Source of the DNA: an uncultured Candidatus Saccharibacteria bacterium
GTDB lineage: Bacteria; Patescibacteriota; Minisyncoccia; Phycocordibacterales; Phycocordibacteraceae
Assembly (NCBI GenBank): GCA_964507275.1
Contig: CAZDPG010000001.1
Location: forward strand, 340,577 to 404,576
DNA length: 64,000 bases
Direction of reading: 5' to 3'
Shown: positions 12,356 to 36,377 of the stretch, in pieces
Layout of the letters: the number at the start of each line of letters is the position of its first letter
Numbering within the stretch: the stretch's first letter is position 1
Made by a program: the position numbers and the translations under genes
Notes under the pieces: model-generated
What the model saw: only the letters and a program-made list of their open reading frames with translations
Databases searched by the model: none
Told to the model about the DNA's origin: nothing

Positions 12356-12991
12356 ATGAACAAACAGACGTTGCAGATGTTGGCGGACATGCCGCCAGAG
12401 ATGCTTGCGGCATGGGAGACTAGTTACCCTGCGAAGTGGAGCATCCGACATATCGCAAGAAACTACACGAGACGGAATATATTCTCTGCCCTCTTCGGTC
12501 TCGCATGGCTTTTCTTGCTGGCCGGAACGGCGACTACAGTCTTCCCCGAAGCGACGATGAATGTCGTGTGGGTGGTTCCGATATCCTTCGGTATCGTCAT
12601 TCTGTTCGCTGTAGGCATATTCCTGGAAGACAGGCTCATCAGCCACCGGACAGAACAAGATGCAATCATCAAATCGCTCGAGACGGCAGTGAAGGATTCG
12701 GATATCGATCTGCAGTTCTACCTTCAGCGTGGCTCTGACTCAAGACGTATCCGGGAGGCGGTGCACTTGCTTCTCGTAGGGGCTGCTCAAGCCGTTCTTG
12801 AGGGCGAGGAACGTTTCAATCGCTTGCGCAAAAAAGATAAGGTACCTGAAACAGAGATTGTCAGGGCCGGTCAGGATTTGCTCCAGCGCCGAGACGTCTT
12901 CAAAAACAGGCTCTTTCGAGCTATACAATTCGGCTTGAGTGACAAGAACTCGCAAAAGTACTTCAAGGAGGCAGCCAGTCAGCTCACTTGA
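12356..12991 (+). CDS. hypothetical membrane protein (2 TM plus a helical cytoplasmic domain)
   Basis: ORF with hydrophobic helices, followed by a terminator. Confidence 0.4.
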   Translation: MNKQTLQMLADMPPEMLAAWETSYPAKWSIRHIARNYTRRNIFSALFGLAWLFLLAGTATTVFPEATMNVVWVVPISFGIVILFAVGIFLEDRLISHRTEQDAIIKSLETAVKDSDIDLQFYLQRGSDSRRIREAVHLLLVGAAQAVLEGEERFNRLRKKDKVPETEIVRAGQDLLQRRDVFKNRLFRAIQFGLSDKNSQKYFKEAASQLT

Positions 12992-13011
12992 ACGAAAGTC
13001 GGTTCGACTTA

Positions 13012-13048
13012 CGACGGCGGTCCCTGTGGCCGCCGTTTCTTATTTTCT
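13012..13048 (+). terminator. rho-independent terminator (cggcgg-tccctgtgg-ccgccg-tttcttatttt)
   Basis: GC stem plus T-run after the stop of the 12356-12991 gene. Confidence 0.55.
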
Positions 13049-13067
13049 CTGCTATATTTTAACTCAA

Positions 13068-13139
13068 GGCCAGGTGGTGAAGTGGTAACACAGCTCTCTG
13101 CAAAAGAGCGATGCGCGGGTTCAATTCCCGCCCTGGCCT
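13068..13139 (+). tRNA. tRNA-Cys (anticodon GCA)
   Basis: Acceptor GGCCAGG/CCTGGCC, anticodon loop CTGCAAA, T-loop TTCAATT. Confidence 0.8.
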
Positions 13140-13157
13140 CAAAATAAAGGCACACGC

Positions 13158-13715
13158 ATGTGGATAGTTGTGCATATTGCTCTACCAGTATGGCATAATC
13201 AATATATGGACCGTCGTCGAACCTGGAACCTTCTACAGCTCCGTAAGGCGGTCAAGACTTCTACGAGCACCCGACAAGTTATCAAGAAACTTGGCCTTGT
13301 TCCTGCTGGAGGTAATTATGTACAAGTTTCTAAAGCAATCAGTGATCAGAAATTGAGTACATCTCATTTCAAGGGACAAGGATGGAACAGAGGGATGAAG
13401 GTCCCTAAGGAGCCGATTTACAAACTGGAAGAGATTTTAGTTCCTAATGGTCACTATAATTCATATCGTCTAAAACAACGTCTCTTCAAGGAGGGGCTTA
13501 AAACAGCGGAATGTGAAGAATGCGGGTGGGCTCAAATGAGCCCCGATGGACGCACACCAGTTGAAATCGACCATATAAATGGAAATCACTCTGATAATCG
13601 AATCGAGAACTTGCGCATCCTCTGCCCCAATTGTCATAGCTTAAAACCCACTCATCGTGGTAAAAATAAGGGTGTCAGCCGGAGTGGCGAAATTGGTCAG
13701 ACGCATCGGGCTTAA
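13158..13715 (+). CDS. free-standing HNH homing-endonuclease-like protein (AT-rich insert); its 3' end overlaps the downstream tRNA-Leu
   Basis: HNH motif ECEECGW...VEIDHINGNHSDNRIENLRILCPNCHS. Markedly AT-rich compared with the flanks. The true start is probably MDRRRTW at 13206. Confidence 0.75.
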   Translation: MWIVVHIALPVWHNQYMDRRRTWNLLQLRKAVKTSTSTRQVIKKLGLVPAGGNYVQVSKAISDQKLSTSHFKGQGWNRGMKVPKEPIYKLEEILVPNGHYNSYRLKQRLFKEGLKTAECEECGWAQMSPDGRTPVEIDHINGNHSDNRIENLRILCPNCHSLKPTHRGKNKGVSRSGEIGQTHRA

Positions 13716-13768
13716 AACCCGAAGAGAGCCTAAAAACCCTCGTGTGGGTTCGAGTCCCACCTCCGGCA
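13678..13768 (+). tRNA. tRNA-Leu (anticodon TAA)
   Basis: Acceptor GCCGGAG/CTCCGGC, D-arm GGCGAAATTGGTCAGACGC, anticodon stem TCGGG/CCCGA with loop CTTAAAA, T-arm GTGGG-TTCGAGT-CCCAC. The long variable region is not cleanly resolved by eye. Confidence 0.6.
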
Positions 13769-13817
13769 CAAAGTTCTATTGAAGAGAATGCATTCATCGT
13801 GTAAAGTTTCTTCTATT

Positions 13818-13890
13818 GCACCTATAGCTCAGTTGGTAGAGCAGCTCCCTCTTAAGGAGACGGTCCCAGGTTCGAGCCCTGGTAGGTGCA
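13818..13890 (+). tRNA. tRNA-Lys (anticodon CTT)
   Basis: Acceptor GCACCTA/TAGGTGC, D-arm GCTCAGTTGGTAGAGC, anticodon loop CTCTTAA. Confidence 0.75.
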
Positions 13891-13932
13891 CAAAACGAGT
13901 ATAGGCCTGGTATAGTGCTTCTTACGCAGTCT

Positions 13933-14014
13933 GCTGGGATGGCGAAATTGGTAGACGCACTAGCCTTAGGAGCTAGCGGGGCAACCCATGGAGGTTCGAG
14001 TCCTCTTCCCAGCA
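13933..14014 (+). tRNA. tRNA-Leu (anticodon TAG)
   Basis: Acceptor GCTGGGA/TCCCAGC, D-arm GGCGAAATTGGTAGACGC, anticodon stem CTAGC/GCTAG with loop CTTAGGA, long variable arm. Confidence 0.75.
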
Positions 14015-14093
14015 CTTGACTTTCTCATAGTTTTGTGTATTATGCGCTCTAGAGCGCAGATCTTTCTGCTGCCCATACTTCAAGGAGAAAACC

Positions 14094-15437
14094 ATGTTCA
14101 AGGAGATTCTAATCATCGGCGGGCTGGTGGTGGTAATCGCCATTCTGACGCTCGCCATAATCCTGCTACTGTCGAATCTTGGCGCTTACTTCACAAAGAT
14201 AGCCCAGGGCACGACGGTCTTCATCAGTGCCGGCGAAAGCCTGCAGGACATCCTGCCGAATATCGGCGGATACAGAATGTCCAATGATCAAGACATCGAC
14301 GGGCGTCATTGGCTCGTCGCGGAAGCAACTGAAGAAAAGAGGCTCGCCGCGTTTTTCCACAACGCTCAGAAAGGAACCGTATGGTTTCAAAAATGGCTTT
14401 GGAAAAAATTCGGTGTAAAGCTCATCAGCTTGTTCTGGCCCCACACCAATGTCCATTCGTTCGACATACGGAAAGGAGGCCGGAGGAGGATTGAAGCACG
14501 CACAGAAGTCGGGCCTGAAGCCCCTCTCCGATCCCGCGTGATAGATTCACCTGAAAAAAGCACCCTTGTCAGTTCCCTTCTCTTCATGGTGCCTCGACCG
14601 ATATATGTGGAGGGAATCGAGCTTGCGGGGGACAACTCAAGAATCAACCTTCTGCTTCTTCCCGTCTTCCGACAGGTCATCCCGGCCTTACCGGTGTATT
14701 ACCTCAAGGGCGACTTCTTCACCCTGATTGATGCGGCCGTAGAAGCCGCCATGGTCGATTTTTTCGCCCGACACCGCGTAGCGGTGTATAAGGATGGTGA
14801 GAAAAAGGGGCAGTTTGCTATGGACTCCTACGAGTCCTCGCAAGCGGAACACGAGGAGAGCCCCCTGACCTACTCCCTCTGGCTAAAGCTCACCAAGGCT
14901 GGTGAAGGATCGCCGATGGAGAAGAAACTTCGCAATCTCAACGTAAGCAAAGAGTATCTTGCCAAGTTGAAGGCGGATGGGGGAAAGGAGGAGCTTGTCG
15001 ATTACATCAAAAAACACCTGATTGTCGGTGAGCCAACCGACGTGCCATCGGCGAGCGCAATCTCTGGGATGATTCCAAACGGAATTGTCCCTCGATTCGG
15101 GTTCGCCTTGGTAAGTTTCAGAGTAGTCGAATGGGAAGCTCACAAGAGCACGGTCGCTCTAGCTGAATCTCTTCTGGCAAAGGAAATAGAGCTTCACACG
15201 GCAGAAGGCGTTCGGCAGAAGGCAATCGGGGAAGGGGCCGCTATCCTAGAGCGATCTGCGGCGGAATCAAGCCGTTATGAGCGGCTCTTGAAAGCCCTCG
15301 TCGACAAGGGAGTAACTCCAGATGTCGCTGCCCAAGTCATAGCAACACAGCTCCGGACGGAAAACATCCGGGATGGCAAAGTCACAACCTATGTCGAAGG
15401 GGCGGCGTCGGCCACAGTGATGGTTCCTACCGCCTGA
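14094..15437 (+). CDS. hypothetical membrane-anchored protein (N-terminal TM; helical C-terminal region faintly SPFH/band-7-like)
   Basis: 447 aa ORF with RBS-like aaggag upstream. No confident motif. Confidence 0.4.
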   Translation: MFKEILIIGGLVVVIAILTLAIILLLSNLGAYFTKIAQGTTVFISAGESLQDILPNIGGYRMSNDQDIDGRHWLVAEATEEKRLAAFFHNAQKGTVWFQKWLWKKFGVKLISLFWPHTNVHSFDIRKGGRRRIEARTEVGPEAPLRSRVIDSPEKSTLVSSLLFMVPRPIYVEGIELAGDNSRINLLLLPVFRQVIPALPVYYLKGDFFTLIDAAVEAAMVDFFARHRVAVYKDGEKKGQFAMDSYESSQAEHEESPLTYSLWLKLTKAGEGSPMEKKLRNLNVSKEYLAKLKADGGKEELVDYIKKHLIVGEPTDVPSASAISGMIPNGIVPRFGFALVSFRVVEWEAHKSTVALAESLLAKEIELHTAEGVRQKAIGEGAAILERSAAESSRYERLLKALVDKGVTPDVAAQVIATQLRTENIRDGKVTTYVEGAASATVMVPTA

Positions 15438-16184: not shown

Positions 16185-16457
16185 TTAGTGACCGGTTATT
16201 TTCGTAATCGGCGTAATGCCGAATGTGCCGAGCGCGAGATTGATGAGACCGTAGGCACCGAAGATGATCACGAGCCCGACGAGACCCCAGAGGATGGCAC
16301 TACGCCCTTCGACCCGCTTCCCTTCGTCACCCGCGTGAACGATGAACTCGAATACGCCCCAAAGAAACGCCACGAATGCAGTCGCCGCAAGAAGCAGGAT
16401 AATCGGGTTGATTATCTGCACGACAACCTTCTCAAGAAATGTTTCGAGGACTGGCAT
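16185..16457 (-). CDS. VirB2/TrbC-like pilin paralog 6 (no signal peptide)
   Basis: Shares IINPIILLLAATAFVAFLWG...EGKRVEGRSAILWGLVGLVIIFGAYGLIN with its neighbours. Starts 0 nt after paralog 5. Confidence 0.6.
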   Translation of the reverse strand: MPVLETFLEKVVVQIINPIILLLAATAFVAFLWGVFEFIVHAGDEGKRVEGRSAILWGLVGLVIIFGAYGLINLALGTFGITPITKITGH

Positions 16458-16835
16458 TTAGCCGCCAATCTGGACACCAGCTTTCGGTGTACCGCCTGAT
16501 ACGCCCGACGTATTGCTGAAGCTGACCGTGCCCGTGAGGATGTTGACGAGACCCCAGACAGAAACCATCACGAAGAAACCGATGAGACCCCAGAGCATGA
16601 GGTTCTTGCCCTTCTCCTTCACGTCATCAGAGTTAGCTCCCAGGATGAACGTCGTGAACGCACCCCAGATGAAGACGATAAACGCGACCGCGAAGAGTAC
16701 CGGAACGAGCACGTTGTTAATGATATTGATAATGAAAGAACCGACGTCTGCGATGTTCCCTATCGCGGCATATGAGATGAGTGGCAAAGCGAAGGCGGCG
16801 AATGTTCCAGTGGTCAGGGCGAGAGCTTTTTTCAT
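16458..16835 (-). CDS. VirB2/TrbC-like pilin paralog 5 (signal peptide plus two helices)
   Basis: MKKALALTTGTFAAFALPLISYAA signal peptide. IINIINNVLVPVLFAVAFIVFIWG...KEKGKNLMLWGLIGFFVMVSVWGLVN. Confidence 0.65.
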   Translation of the reverse strand: MKKALALTTGTFAAFALPLISYAAIGNIADVGSFIINIINNVLVPVLFAVAFIVFIWGAFTTFILGANSDDVKEKGKNLMLWGLIGFFVMVSVWGLVNILTGTVSFSNTSGVSGGTPKAGVQIGG

Positions 16836-16925
16836 AGAATGAGTGAACGGTTAATAGAGTAATTGTAGCCTGTGGGCGATACGGGTCAATGCACCTGTGT
16901 CCGACGTGTGGATAAGCCGAGCTTC

Positions 16926-17291
16926 CTAAAGGGTTGGGTAGTTCGGGGCCGTCCCTCCGGCTGAGAGACCGAACGTGCTTCCTACGACCGCGACGAGGCC
17001 CCACATCGAGAGTATGACGACGAACCCAATGATGCCCCAGAAGACGAAGTCCCGACCTTCCTTGCGCGATTCTTCTTTGGTCGCACCGAGGATGAAGTAT
17101 TTATATACGCCCCAGAGGAACGTCAAGAACGCGAGGGCGAAGAGTACCGGCACGAACACGTTGTTGATGATATTGATGATGCTCGAAGAATACCCAGTAA
17201 CGATACCCATATTGATGCCCGTACCTTGGGCAGACGCGAGAAGAGGGGCAGCAAACGTAAGCGGTGCGATGAGCCAGGAGATCTTTTTCAT
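16926..17291 (-). CDS. VirB2/TrbC-like pilin paralog 4
   Basis: Trimmed to MKKISWLIAPLTFAAPLLASAQG (signal peptide). IINIINNVFVPVLFALAFLTFLWG...RKEGRDFVFWGIIGFVVILSMWGLV. Confidence 0.65.
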   Translation of the reverse strand: MKKISWLIAPLTFAAPLLASAQGTGINMGIVTGYSSSIINIINNVFVPVLFALAFLTFLWGVYKYFILGATKEESRKEGRDFVFWGIIGFVVILSMWGLVAVVGSTFGLSAGGTAPNYPTL

Positions 17292-17296
17292 ACTTC

Positions 17297-17740
17297 CTAA
17301 TACGATCGCGGCAATTGAGGCGCACCAGCACCAGTAAGTCCGAAAGTGTTTGCGACGACATTCACGAGACCCCAGAGCGACACCATCACGACGAACCCTA
17401 TGAGGCCCCAAAGAACCAGCTTATGCCCTTCTTCAACCTCGCCCGGCTCACCATGAGAAAAGATGTACGCTTTGGCGATGCCGTACAGGAACGTGAGGAA
17501 TGCAACCGCGAAGAGTACTGGCACGAGGATGCCATTTATGATGTAGAGGATTGTGGAAGCGACGCAGCCGATACCGCCGGAACATGCACCGAAAAACGGT
17601 CCCGATGCTGAGATAAAGCCGTATGAATAGCCGGTGTTTACCGTCTGCGGACCGCCACCGACCCCGACCGTCTGCGCGAGCGCGAGCGCGGGAGTGAGAA
17701 ACACAGCAAGCGATGCGAGGATACGAGCGGGTATTTTCAT
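17297..17740 (-). CDS. VirB2/TrbC-like pilin paralog 3 (Gly/Cys-containing N-terminal extension)
   Basis: Trimmed to MKIPARILASLAVFLTPALALAQ (ATG 17740). ILYIINGILVPVLFAVAFLTFLYG...EEGHKLVLWGLIGFVVMVSLWGLVN. Confidence 0.65.
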   Translation of the reverse strand: MKIPARILASLAVFLTPALALAQTVGVGGGPQTVNTGYSYGFISASGPFFGACSGGIGCVASTILYIINGILVPVLFAVAFLTFLYGIAKAYIFSHGEPGEVEEGHKLVLWGLIGFVVMVSLWGLVNVVANTFGLTGAGAPQLPRSY

Positions 17741-35450: not shown

Positions 35451-35522
35451 GGCCCTATCGTCTAACGGTTAGGACAGGTCCCTTTCACGGATCAAATCGG
35501 GGTTCGATTCCCCGTGGGGTCA
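35451..35522 (+). tRNA. tRNA-Glu (anticodon TTC)
   Basis: GGCCCTATCGTCTAACGGTTAGGACAGGTCCCTTTCACGGATC...GGGGTTCGATTCCCCGTGGGGTCA, very close to canonical bacterial tRNA-Glu. Confidence 0.75.
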
Positions 35523-35579
35523 CAAAATTATCCACTGCAGCAAATCGAACGCTCGTGCGCACTCATGTAGAATACATAC

Positions 35580-36281
35580 ATGAGTATCGATTCAGCACTC
35601 AAACAAAAAGCCATCCAGTTACGCCTCGAAGGTAAGAGCTATACTGAGATTCTTAAGCAATTGCAGTTGAAATCAAAAGGAACTTTGAGTGTTTGGTTTC
35701 GAGAATTAAAATTACCTGCCAAATCCAAAAGACTTCTGGAGAAGAATACCGCTCGAGCAACGGAACGTGGTCTTCTTGAGTTCAATCGGAAGCGTTCGCA
35801 ACTGGTACAGGAACAGAATGAAACTGCCTATCGCATCGGATGTGGTGAGGTGGGAAAGATAACTGAGCGCGAACTCTTAGTGCTCGGAGCGGCGCTGTAC
35901 TGGGGAGAAGGAACGAAATACGAGAGAAAGAATGGATCGATAGCGCTTGTTTTCACAAACTCAGATCCAGAAATGATTCTGGTCTTCATGGAATTCCTGC
36001 GTCGAATACTGAAAATTCCTGAAGAAAGAATTCGTGCTGGCATCCACATGTACTCTCAAGCTGAAACCGACATACAGAAGACTCGACAATATTGGTCGGA
36101 GATAACGAATTTGCCTGCCGCTCGTTTTTACATTTCTCAATTAGTAAGTGGGGCGAGTTCGCTCAAAAGAGATAAGAAACGACTCCCTTACGGAACTCTC
36201 GCAATCCGAGTCAATGACCGGAAAATATTCTTTCGAGTAAAAGGCATGATGAGAGGGTTAATTGAGGGCTTAAAAAAATAA
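35580..36281 (+). CDS. LAGLIDADG-like homing endonuclease candidate with N-terminal HTH (AT-rich insert between tRNA-Glu and tRNA-Val)
   Basis: ELLVLGAALYWGEGTK...GSIALVFTNSDPEMILVFMEFLRRIL resembles a single LAGLIDADG motif plus the following beta-sheet. N-terminal HTH (KSYTEILKQLQLKSKGTLSVWF). Strongly AT-rich relative to the flanks. Confidence 0.45.
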   Translation: MSIDSALKQKAIQLRLEGKSYTEILKQLQLKSKGTLSVWFRELKLPAKSKRLLEKNTARATERGLLEFNRKRSQLVQEQNETAYRIGCGEVGKITERELLVLGAALYWGEGTKYERKNGSIALVFTNSDPEMILVFMEFLRRILKIPEERIRAGIHMYSQAETDIQKTRQYWSEITNLPAARFYISQLVSGASSLKRDKKRLPYGTLAIRVNDRKIFFRVKGMMRGLIEGLKK

Positions 36282-36299: not shown

Positions 36300-36377
36300 G
36301 CGCCGTTAGCTCAGCTGGTTTAGAGCGTCTCATTGACGTTGAGAAGGTCGGGGATTCGAATTCCTCACGGCGCACCA
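36300..36377 (+). tRNA. tRNA-Val (anticodon GAC), CCA encoded
   Basis: GCGCCGTTAGCTCAGCTGGTTTAGAGCGTCTCATTGACGTTGAGAAGGTCGGGGATTCGAATTCCTCACGGCGCACCA. Confidence 0.8.

Follow-up and report, generated by a model that had tools for sequence, protein, structure and literature searches.

An HNH endonuclease gene that terminates inside tRNA-Leu(UAA): a putative homing cassette in a tRNA operon of Patescibacteria

Background

In a 64,000-nucleotide (nt) stretch of an uncultured Candidatus Saccharibacteria genome (the window; contig CAZDPG010000001.1, positions 340,577 to 404,576), an open reading frame (ORF) for an HNH endonuclease is found between the genes of tRNA-Cys(GCA) and tRNA-Leu(UAA), and its stop codon is the anticodon triplet of the second tRNA. 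The question raised by this locus is whether the gene is a mobile element attached to tRNA-Leu(UAA), or a host gene that is merely encoded beside it. A first-pass annotation, made from the letters of the sequence without database searches, had proposed a free-standing homing-endonuclease insertion next to an intact tRNA, and had considered its AT-rich composition as the mark of a recent mobile acquisition.

The locus contains an intact two-domain nuclease gene, embedded in a tRNA operon, strictly adjacent to tRNA-Leu(UAA) and terminating inside it. Comparison of related genomes shows gain, loss and replacement of the cassette at one junction, and the cassette is considered likely to be an active or recently active free-standing homing endonuclease gene, with putative cleavage activity. 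As judged from the loci compared, the fixed home of this lineage in the Candidate Phyla Radiation (CPR, Patescibacteria) is the short spacer from tRNA-Cys(GCA) to tRNA-Leu(UAA), with the 3' end of the gene lying against the tRNA or running into it. The window itself reads as a cellular CPR chromosome and not as a viral genome, because it encodes a short translation initiation factor IF2 (489 amino acids, aa) and RbfA just upstream of the locus, a SpoU methylase and scattered tRNAs.

Structure of the locus and of the predicted protein

tRNA genes were called using ARAGORN and the Rfam tRNA model RF00005 (gathering score 29 bits), which agree on four forward-strand genes (66.4, 63.0, 67.4 and 58.0 bits in Rfam). 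These are tRNA-Cys(GCA) (13068-13140), the left flank of the cassette; tRNA-Leu(UAA) (13678-13769), a contiguous class II tRNA with a long variable arm, which forms the right flank and is the presumed docking site; tRNA-Lys(CUU) (13818-13891), a conserved downstream member of the operon; and tRNA-Leu(UAG) (13933-14015), its final gene. The HNH ORF occupies 13206-13715 of the same strand, as supported by the ORF list, Pfam and the alignment of homologues, and is preceded by a left spacer (13141-13205) that is kept in two other loci (L134 and L001). The open frame that contains the gene covers 13158-13715; the start was set at the ATG at 13206 by homologue alignment, which gives a protein of 169 aa. 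The in-frame ATG at 13158 was rejected as a start, since homologues give it no support and the equivalent reading in L001 runs into a stop codon. The overlap with tRNA-Leu(UAA) amounts to 38 nt, that is 12 codons and the stop, close to the 12 or so codons first estimated, and the TAA triplet at 13713-13715 (tRNA position 36) serves the tRNA as anticodon and the HNH gene as stop codon.

The tRNA-Leu(UAA) gene was aligned to the entire Rfam model (63 bits), with no insertion but the long variable arm. A permissive scan of 12500-14500 with Rfam recovered the four tRNAs and sub-threshold noise only, with no intron or other RNA family and no Intron_gpI match at E<=1. With tRNA-Leu(UAA) and tRNA-Cys both complete and no intron family between them, the gene is free-standing, and the earlier description of an intact, intron-free tRNA beside an insertion that is not an intron agrees with these results.

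Two Pfam families match the protein above their cutoffs, HNH_3 (PF13392; 29.6 bits against 24.8) and HNH (PF01844; 27.1 against 21.4). The HNH motif noticed in the first reading is not degenerate, since the zinc ligands (C103/C106 and C140/C143, in a CxxC...CxxC arrangement) and the catalytic residues D122-H123, N135 and H144 are invariant in 36 homologues. The zinc-finger HNH nuclease domain, of the beta-beta-alpha-Me type, was delimited by Pfam, alignment and predicted structure to residues 100-152 (13503-13661), with predicted strands at 120-123 and 136-139 and a helix at 141-145. It is preceded by a three-helix, helix-turn-helix-like (HTH-like) module at residues 9-47 (13230-13346; predicted helices 9-18, 22-28 and 35-47), modelled with a predicted local distance difference test score (pLDDT) of about 90 and presumed to be the DNA-recognition domain. 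The whole model has a pLDDT of 79, and the score falls below 50 for residues 153-169. The tail VSRSGEIGQTHRA, encoded by the 5' half of the tRNA gene (13678-13715), is predicted to be disordered and is not conserved as protein. Purifying selection acts on the protein, with a ratio of nonsynonymous to synonymous substitution rates (dN/dS) of 0.05-0.12.

Searches of solved structures gave no whole-protein relative: Foldseek against the PDB returned weak matches to the HNH domain only, and a PDB sequence-profile search returned McrA only (E 0.2-0.5), so that the best, though weak, structural or sequence matches are the HNH domains of McrA, ScoMcrA and Cap5. A phage profile, phrog_10822 ("HNH endonuclease"), matches over the full length of the protein, N-terminal module included: residues 1-158 align with profile positions 2-158 of 245 (E=6.7e-43).

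Distribution of the family and its attachment to tRNA-Leu(UAA)

The protein search for homologues yielded more than 3,400 clusters at 90% identity, which are mostly unnamed metagenomic proteins; the few named ones are Patescibacteria. When clustered at 50%, the full-length family comprises 197 representatives (E<=1e-30). Several homologues carry C-terminal tails (SGEIGQTHRA, GGETGRHATLKTL and GGEMVDTRRLKRCEL, each directly before the stop) that resemble a Leu tRNA gene translated in varying frames. This was tested on DNA by a scan of species-representative genomes, which gave at least 577 loci; 80 of them were fetched, and the CPR counts below rest on those 80. They span Kaiser-, Sacchari-, Magasanik-, Doudna-, Berkel-, Peregrini-, Woese-, Levy- and Curtissbacteria, among others.

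In 79/80 loci the CPNCH motif is followed, as the first tRNA, by a tRNA-Leu(UAA) of the same direction, which starts 32-95 nt past the motif. In the remaining locus the tRNA is N-masked, and the tail of the ORF looks like a translation of the 5' portion of a Leu tRNA gene. The upstream neighbour is tRNA-Cys(GCA) in 47 loci, and the order IF2, RbfA, tRNA-Cys, HNH, tRNA-Leu(UAA), tRNA-Lys(CUU), tRNA-Leu(UAG) is found in about 40, down to 36% IF2 identity. The position of the ORF end was scored in 77 loci: it lies before the tRNA in 29 and at or inside it in 48. Among these 48, the ORF end straddles the start of the tRNA in 3, falls in the D-arm region in 18, coincides with the anticodon (the arrangement of the window) in 6 and is placed further 3' within the tRNA in 17, while 4 ORFs continue through the entire tRNA. 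The overlap is thus a habit of the family and not a peculiarity of the window, and the window copy is an ordinary member of a very large family that adjoins tRNA-Leu(UAA) in every locus examined. This has a consequence for annotation, since for about 60% of the family gene callers prolong the ORF into the tRNA.

Loci of the CPR type were also observed in metagenome-assembled genomes labelled Nevskiaceae, Gammaproteobacteria, Clostridia, Elusimicrobiaceae and Omnitrophica (L015, L020, L030, L031, L034, L063 and L011); these are probably mis-binned CPR contigs, the other reading being a genuine spread beyond the phylum. Homing endonuclease genes have been studied thoroughly in phages, organelles and introns, but in open-access papers and preprints we found no description of a tRNA-Leu-linked HNH family in CPR, nor, in the open-access literature, of a free-standing homing endonuclease gene tied to one tRNA junction across a phylum.

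Gain, loss and exchange of the cassette

Empty sites were searched in metagenome DNA using a pattern made of a clade-type tRNA-Cys 3' end, 1-31 nt and a Leu-type 5' end, which led to 37 loci. Both tRNA-Cys and tRNA-Leu(UAA) are present in 33 of these, adjacent pairs being 1-28 nt apart, and no HNH gene was found by tblastn in any of the 37. In close relatives without the gene the arrangement is tRNA-Cys, 12-24 nt, tRNA-Leu(UAA), and many empty loci have IF2-RbfA upstream and tRNA-Lys(CUU)/tRNA-Leu(UAG) downstream. Such a bare junction is an ordinary bacterial arrangement, since cysT and leuZ of E. coli are likewise separated by 12 nt. The IF2 identity to the window is 78% for the empty locus L094 (RbfA 82%), 80% for L108, 77% for L117 and 75% for L090, and the occupied loci L001, L005 and L025 (76-77%) are no closer. 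In the IF2 tree, occupied and empty genomes interleave and the nearest neighbour of the window, L094, is empty. Presence and absence are thus polymorphic at one defined site among related genomes, and the gene can be regarded as dispensable because the nearest relatives have empty junctions.

The 23-nt spacer of the empty site in L094 (840-862; AAAGAGGTAAAATAAAGACTCTT) reads like the final HNH codons R-G-K-I-K-T (compare L056). In the search for footprints of deletion in empty spacers it is the only case (codons R-G-K-(N)-I-K-T; P of about 0.01 before correction, in 14 tests), and a deletion footprint of the HNH gene is therefore suggestive only.

Trees of the HNH protein and of IF2, which is encoded 1.2 kb away, are in conflict: the grouping of the window with L001 against L005 with L025 was recovered in 1000/1000 bootstrap replicates for HNH and in 2/1000 for IF2, the four IF2 proteins being 73-79% identical. 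Over 666 pairs, HNH and IF2 pairwise identities are nearly unrelated (Spearman 0.09). The clearest case of exchange is the contig L134, whose HNH protein is 95% identical to that of the window: over a stretch of 689 nt that comprises tRNA-Cys, the spacer and HNH, the two loci share 92.5% identity, against 79.1% over 660 nt of IF2/RbfA, and the block of high identity begins inside tRNA-Cys. Synonymous divergence (dS) is 0.35 for HNH, 1.00 for the IF2 C-terminus and 1.31 for RbfA. On this comparison, a recent exchange of the cassette between the lineages of the window and of L134 is the reading adopted. Mobility is thus argued from the empty sites in close relatives, the conflict between the HNH and IF2 trees and a cassette dS below that of its flanks against L134, and the history of the HNH gene appears decoupled from that of its hosts, as expected from horizontal spread.

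A first alternative, which we consider unlikely, is a domesticated gene, acquired once early in Patescibacteria, serving the host (for example in DNA repair, restriction or the expression of the tRNA operon) and inherited vertically with occasional loss. The low dN/dS alongside saturated dS between relatives, the identical position in many CPR classes and close pairs in which HNH and IF2 identities run parallel (for instance 0.88/0.84 for L032/L053) all fit such a gene. The quartet conflict with the adjacent IF2, a cassette dS that is 3-4 times below that of the flanking genes against L134, and empty junctions in the nearest relatives do not.

Nucleotide composition was found to bear on both sides. 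The HNH gene is AT-rich as the first-pass annotation had stated (G + C content, GC, of 0.445; 0.41 at third codon positions, GC3, against 0.62-0.70 in neighbour genes), the GC of the window being about 55% (0.553) and not the 60% then given for the host. Across the family, HNH GC follows host GC (r=0.86, slope 0.70) with the window on the trend, in favour of a domesticated gene. HNH GC3 follows the host only weakly (slope 0.34) and shows a deficit of 0.24-0.42 in GC-rich hosts, the window included, where a domesticated gene would not be expected to remain so far under its host despite synonymous sites that are saturated between the window and L001. The deficit fits repeated import from an AT-rich CPR pool, or a gene-specific constraint. 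Low GC was consequently discarded as proof of recent arrival, since HNH GC tracks the host and the GC3 deficit, although systematic, cannot date arrival. The GC contrast put forward first is thus the weakest of the arguments for mobility; mobility itself stands, on the empty sites, the tree conflict and L134.

Relatives in GC-rich genomes and phages

Outside CPR, long variants of 270-290 aa were found in genomes of 65-76% GC (one cluster is named Kofleriaceae); they carry 2-3 tandem copies of the N-terminal module, with weak HTH_Tnp_1 matches. All six loci compared adjoin a UAA-anticodon tRNA, five in convergent and one in co-directional orientation, and in the convergent ones the stop codon lies 0-37 nt from the tRNA 3' end or overlaps it. 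One homologue belongs to a 485-kb phage in which five Leu tRNA genes form an array; the first of them is a tRNA-Leu(UAA), and the HNH ORF, convergent to it, has its end there. Phage homologues that are more distant (about 40% identity by tblastn; phrog_10822 type) are all in or beside tRNA clusters. In 4 of 6 phage loci (L125, L126, L127 and L128) the next tRNA overlaps the ORF end or starts at most 2 nt away, and in three of the six the two genes touch or overlap.

In three of the GC-rich loci the UAA-anticodon tRNAs (L130 1223-1298, L131 2333-2408 and L132 2368-2444) measure 76-77 nt and have a short variable arm, a class-I shape that is unusual for a Leu tRNA. When L122 is compared with L121, L130 and L131, the HNH gene and its tRNA(UAA) are inverted together relative to alpha/beta-hydrolase and protein-kinase genes, which hints at joint movement or inversion of the nuclease gene and the tRNA in GC-rich genomes.

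These relatives bear on a second alternative, quite unlikely in our view, by which the gene is a passive passenger: homologous recombination between tRNA genes would swap whatever DNA lies between them, the nuclease being otherwise employed, for instance in McrA-like restriction, and not driving its own spread. Its nearest solved structures are indeed, by weak matches, restriction or defence HNH domains (McrA, ScoMcrA, Cap5), the tRNA operon has taken up other genes as well, namely racemases and an aminotransferase, downstream of tRNA-Leu(UAA), and no target asymmetry was detected between alleles. Against this, the phage relatives lie inside tRNA clusters, where HNH genes are read as homing endonucleases (PMC10194208, PMC6582537; compare T4 SegB, PMC2988022). 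Moreover, throughout the family the 3' end of the gene lies against a UAA-anticodon tRNA, in hosts that are unrelated to one another and in either orientation, which argues for sequence-specific docking rather than chance recombination. A relic of a group I intron-encoded endonuclease once housed within tRNA-Leu(UAA) is very improbable, as it has in its favour only the coincidence that this tRNA is a classic group I intron host, and has against it a contiguous 63-bit tRNA, the permissive Rfam scan devoid of intron families, and the place of the ORF, which in all 80 loci lies 5' of tRNA position 1 instead of in the anticodon loop.

Proposed mechanism

Under the preferred reading, that of a free-standing homing endonuclease gene, the enzyme would act on alleles lacking the cassette, where it would recognise a site in or close to the tRNA-Leu(UAA) gene and nick or cut the DNA. 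Repair on the template of an occupied allele would then copy the cassette of about 530 bp into the spacer, presumably by recombination in which the flanking conserved tRNA genes act as homology arms that are usable between diverged lineages. The cassette would be transcribed within the tRNA operon, through the operon promoter and possibly a -10-like element of its own, and, because it carries no stop codon of its own, translation would end at the first in-frame stop inside the tRNA gene, which in the window is the UAA anticodon. Cleavage by RNase P at the tRNA 5' end could leave a stop-less mRNA, in many members of the family, and so keep the nuclease low. With the tRNA directly behind the ORF, an imprecise deletion would endanger an essential tRNA, and this may aid retention, much as T4 endonuclease genes are kept because of the host promoters that they carry (PMC2988022).

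Several points weigh against this reading. Cleavage activity and homing are inferred from sequence, and homing in cellular bacteria requires DNA exchange between lineages, which is assumed here. A gene that benefits its host would also be compatible with the strong purifying selection over long times, the partial amelioration of GC and the retention at one site across the phylum. The floor of about 60% in HNH identity may partly reflect saturation at variable positions and not transfer. No target site can be inferred from the comparison of occupied and empty alleles, and their tRNA-Leu D-stems show no obvious immunity polymorphism in an empty set that is biased by the search pattern. Occupied loci were picked by HNH similarity and empty ones by tRNA pattern, so that the counts do not give an occupancy frequency.

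A broader proposal, possible although we regard it as doubtful, is an endonuclease lineage specific for the tRNA-Leu(UAA) gene that docks at either end and has passed among phyla and viruses without losing this specificity; in most members it would have abandoned a stop codon of its own and coupled its expression to tRNA processing. Docking may occur at the 5' side, co-directionally, in Patescibacteria, and at the 3' side, convergently, in GC-rich Myxococcota-like genomes and the huge phage; the acceptor stem, whose sequence is present at the two tRNA ends as an inverted repeat, could explain both orientations. If such specificity is true, the cassette would also serve as a natural marker by which DNA exchange among CPR lineages can be traced. 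Should the mechanism hold, the family would be a natural source of tRNA-gene-targeting enzymes with modular DNA-binding units (one to three N-terminal repeats), the loci would be direct genomic evidence of cross-lineage DNA exchange and recombination in ultra-small, host-dependent CPR with tRNA genes as universal homology arms, and a protein gene ending on a tRNA anticodon would offer a testable link between tRNA processing and the control of a selfish nuclease.

Comparison with known systems

In cyanobacteria and plastids, tRNA-Leu(UAA) genes are well known for harbouring a group I intron. The same tRNA species thus serves as the landing place of a mobile element in both cases, whereas the window has no ribozyme match and no interruption of the anticodon loop, and its element lies upstream of the tRNA. 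Bacterial group I introns are reviewed in PMC3984707.

HNH homing endonucleases have been noted among the clustered tRNA genes of numerous lytic phages, and also in mycobacterial tRNA arrays of phage origin, where they are treated as mobile (PMC10194208, PMC6582537). Those of the phrog_10822 type (for example in T5-like, Felix O1-like, Pakpunavirus, actinophage and cyanophage genomes) are full-length homologues of the window protein, with the same two-part build, and are likewise wedged between tRNAs. They adjoin various tRNAs (Gly, Glu, Ile, Arg, Leu-UAG) in an accessory phage array, whereas the CPR lineage is bound to one tRNA species and one junction in a chromosomal core tRNA operon of cellular organisms, and its ORFs, in contrast to the known endonucleases from tRNA regions of phages, regularly terminate within the tRNA.

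A related concept is intronless homing, which covers the Seg and Mob endonucleases. In T4, the free-standing endonuclease gene segB also lies between tRNA genes and promotes inheritance of the tRNA region, and T4 endonuclease genes have their expression limited by transcript processing and are favoured in retention by embedded host promoters (PMC2988022). SegB is however a GIY-YIG phage enzyme that depends on co-infection, and the window gene is an HNH gene of a bacterial chromosome, known from sequence, whose ORF overlaps the tRNA. Within CPR, LAGLIDADG homing endonucleases of patchy distribution have been described in rRNA-gene insertions (PMC11270868, PMC8172020, PMC11809585). They share with the HNH cassette the host phylum and the settlement of selfish endonuclease genes at highly conserved RNA genes, but they sit inside the rRNA genes, in introns or insertions that need to be removed from the RNA, whereas the cassette is intergenic, leaves the tRNA intact and encodes a different nuclease family.

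Transcription signals and repeats at the locus

A terminator-like hairpin (13013-13037, with a T-run to 13046) ends the gene of a 211-aa protein and marks the upstream edge of the tRNA operon, and a second one (stem-loop at 14043-14058, followed by a T-rich tail) closes it; both are on the forward strand. With terminator-like hairpins on both sides of the array, the four tRNAs and the HNH gene look like a single transcription unit. An extended -10-like element (TGCTATATT, 13047-13057, forward strand), about 10 nt 5' of tRNA-Cys, was recognised by eye only as the putative operon promoter; the sigma-70 consensus scan did not call it, because it has no -35. A further -10-like element (TATGGCATAAT, 13189-13199, forward strand), also found by eye, ends 6 nt 5' of the HNH ATG, a position that suggests a leaderless mRNA, and elements resembling 'tatggtaNact' are present in many HNH loci. 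No promoter was found by the sigma-70 scan within the 3' part of the HNH ORF, which leaves an internal tRNA-Leu promoter unsupported.

Two exact 11-nt copies (GGGCTTAAAAC at 13494-13504 and GCTTAAAACCC at 13639-13649) of the tRNA-Leu(UAA) anticodon stem-loop (13708-13720) were noticed within the ORF. They were rejected as a signal, since they fall on conserved Leu-Lys codons, and are probably a coincidence, as their DNA is not conserved in L001, L025 and L003. The direct repeats that flank the cassette (AAAATAAAGG at 13141 and AAAATAAGGG at 13663) are too short and A-rich to be interpreted as a target duplication, and a GGTA microhomology in L001 is likewise too short.

Other insertions and neighbouring genes

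The segment 12244-13067, between RbfA and tRNA-Cys, holds the 211-aa membrane-protein gene (12356-12991; no Pfam family match), the terminator and the promoter-like element in this genome only. In L134, L001, L005, L025 and L094, tRNA-Cys lies at most about 160 nt from the end of RbfA, which leaves no room for such a gene, and the segment looks like a lineage-specific insertion.

Genes for D-amino-acid or cell-wall enzymes were observed between tRNA-Leu(UAA) and tRNA-Lys(CUU) in four loci (L001 3818-4675, L013 3464-4684, L108 1728-2525 and L136 799-1620). By eye they are class-IV aminotransferase-like, alanine racemase-like and glutamate racemase-like, that of L136 having a precomputed Asp_Glu_race match, and the variety of enzyme genes at this place points to the Leu(UAA)/Lys(CUU) junction as a second insertion hot spot.

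Downstream of the tRNA operon, the window carries a row of small hydrophobic proteins on the reverse strand (16185-17411). A comparable row of small ORFs in L135, also downstream of the operon, has PF18895 T4SS_pilin matches; this comparison, in which homology to the window ORFs is presumed, would suggest that the small proteins are type-IV-secretion-like pilins.

A second AT-rich ORF of 233 aa (35580-36281, forward strand; GC3 0.425, in a local GC dip) lies between tRNA-Glu(UUC) (35451-35523) and tRNA-Val(GAC) (36300-36377). It has no Pfam, PHROG or PDB-sequence match; by eye, an HTH-like stretch is seen near the N-terminus, together with a LAGLIDADG-like motif ('LGAALYWGEGTK...TNSDPE'). Its homologue (31% identity, E 2e-25) at 11808-12557 of L111, a locus empty of HNH, is placed between tRNA-Leu(UAA) and tRNA-Lys(CUU), and the window ORF may represent a second family of homing endonucleases in CPR tRNA operons.

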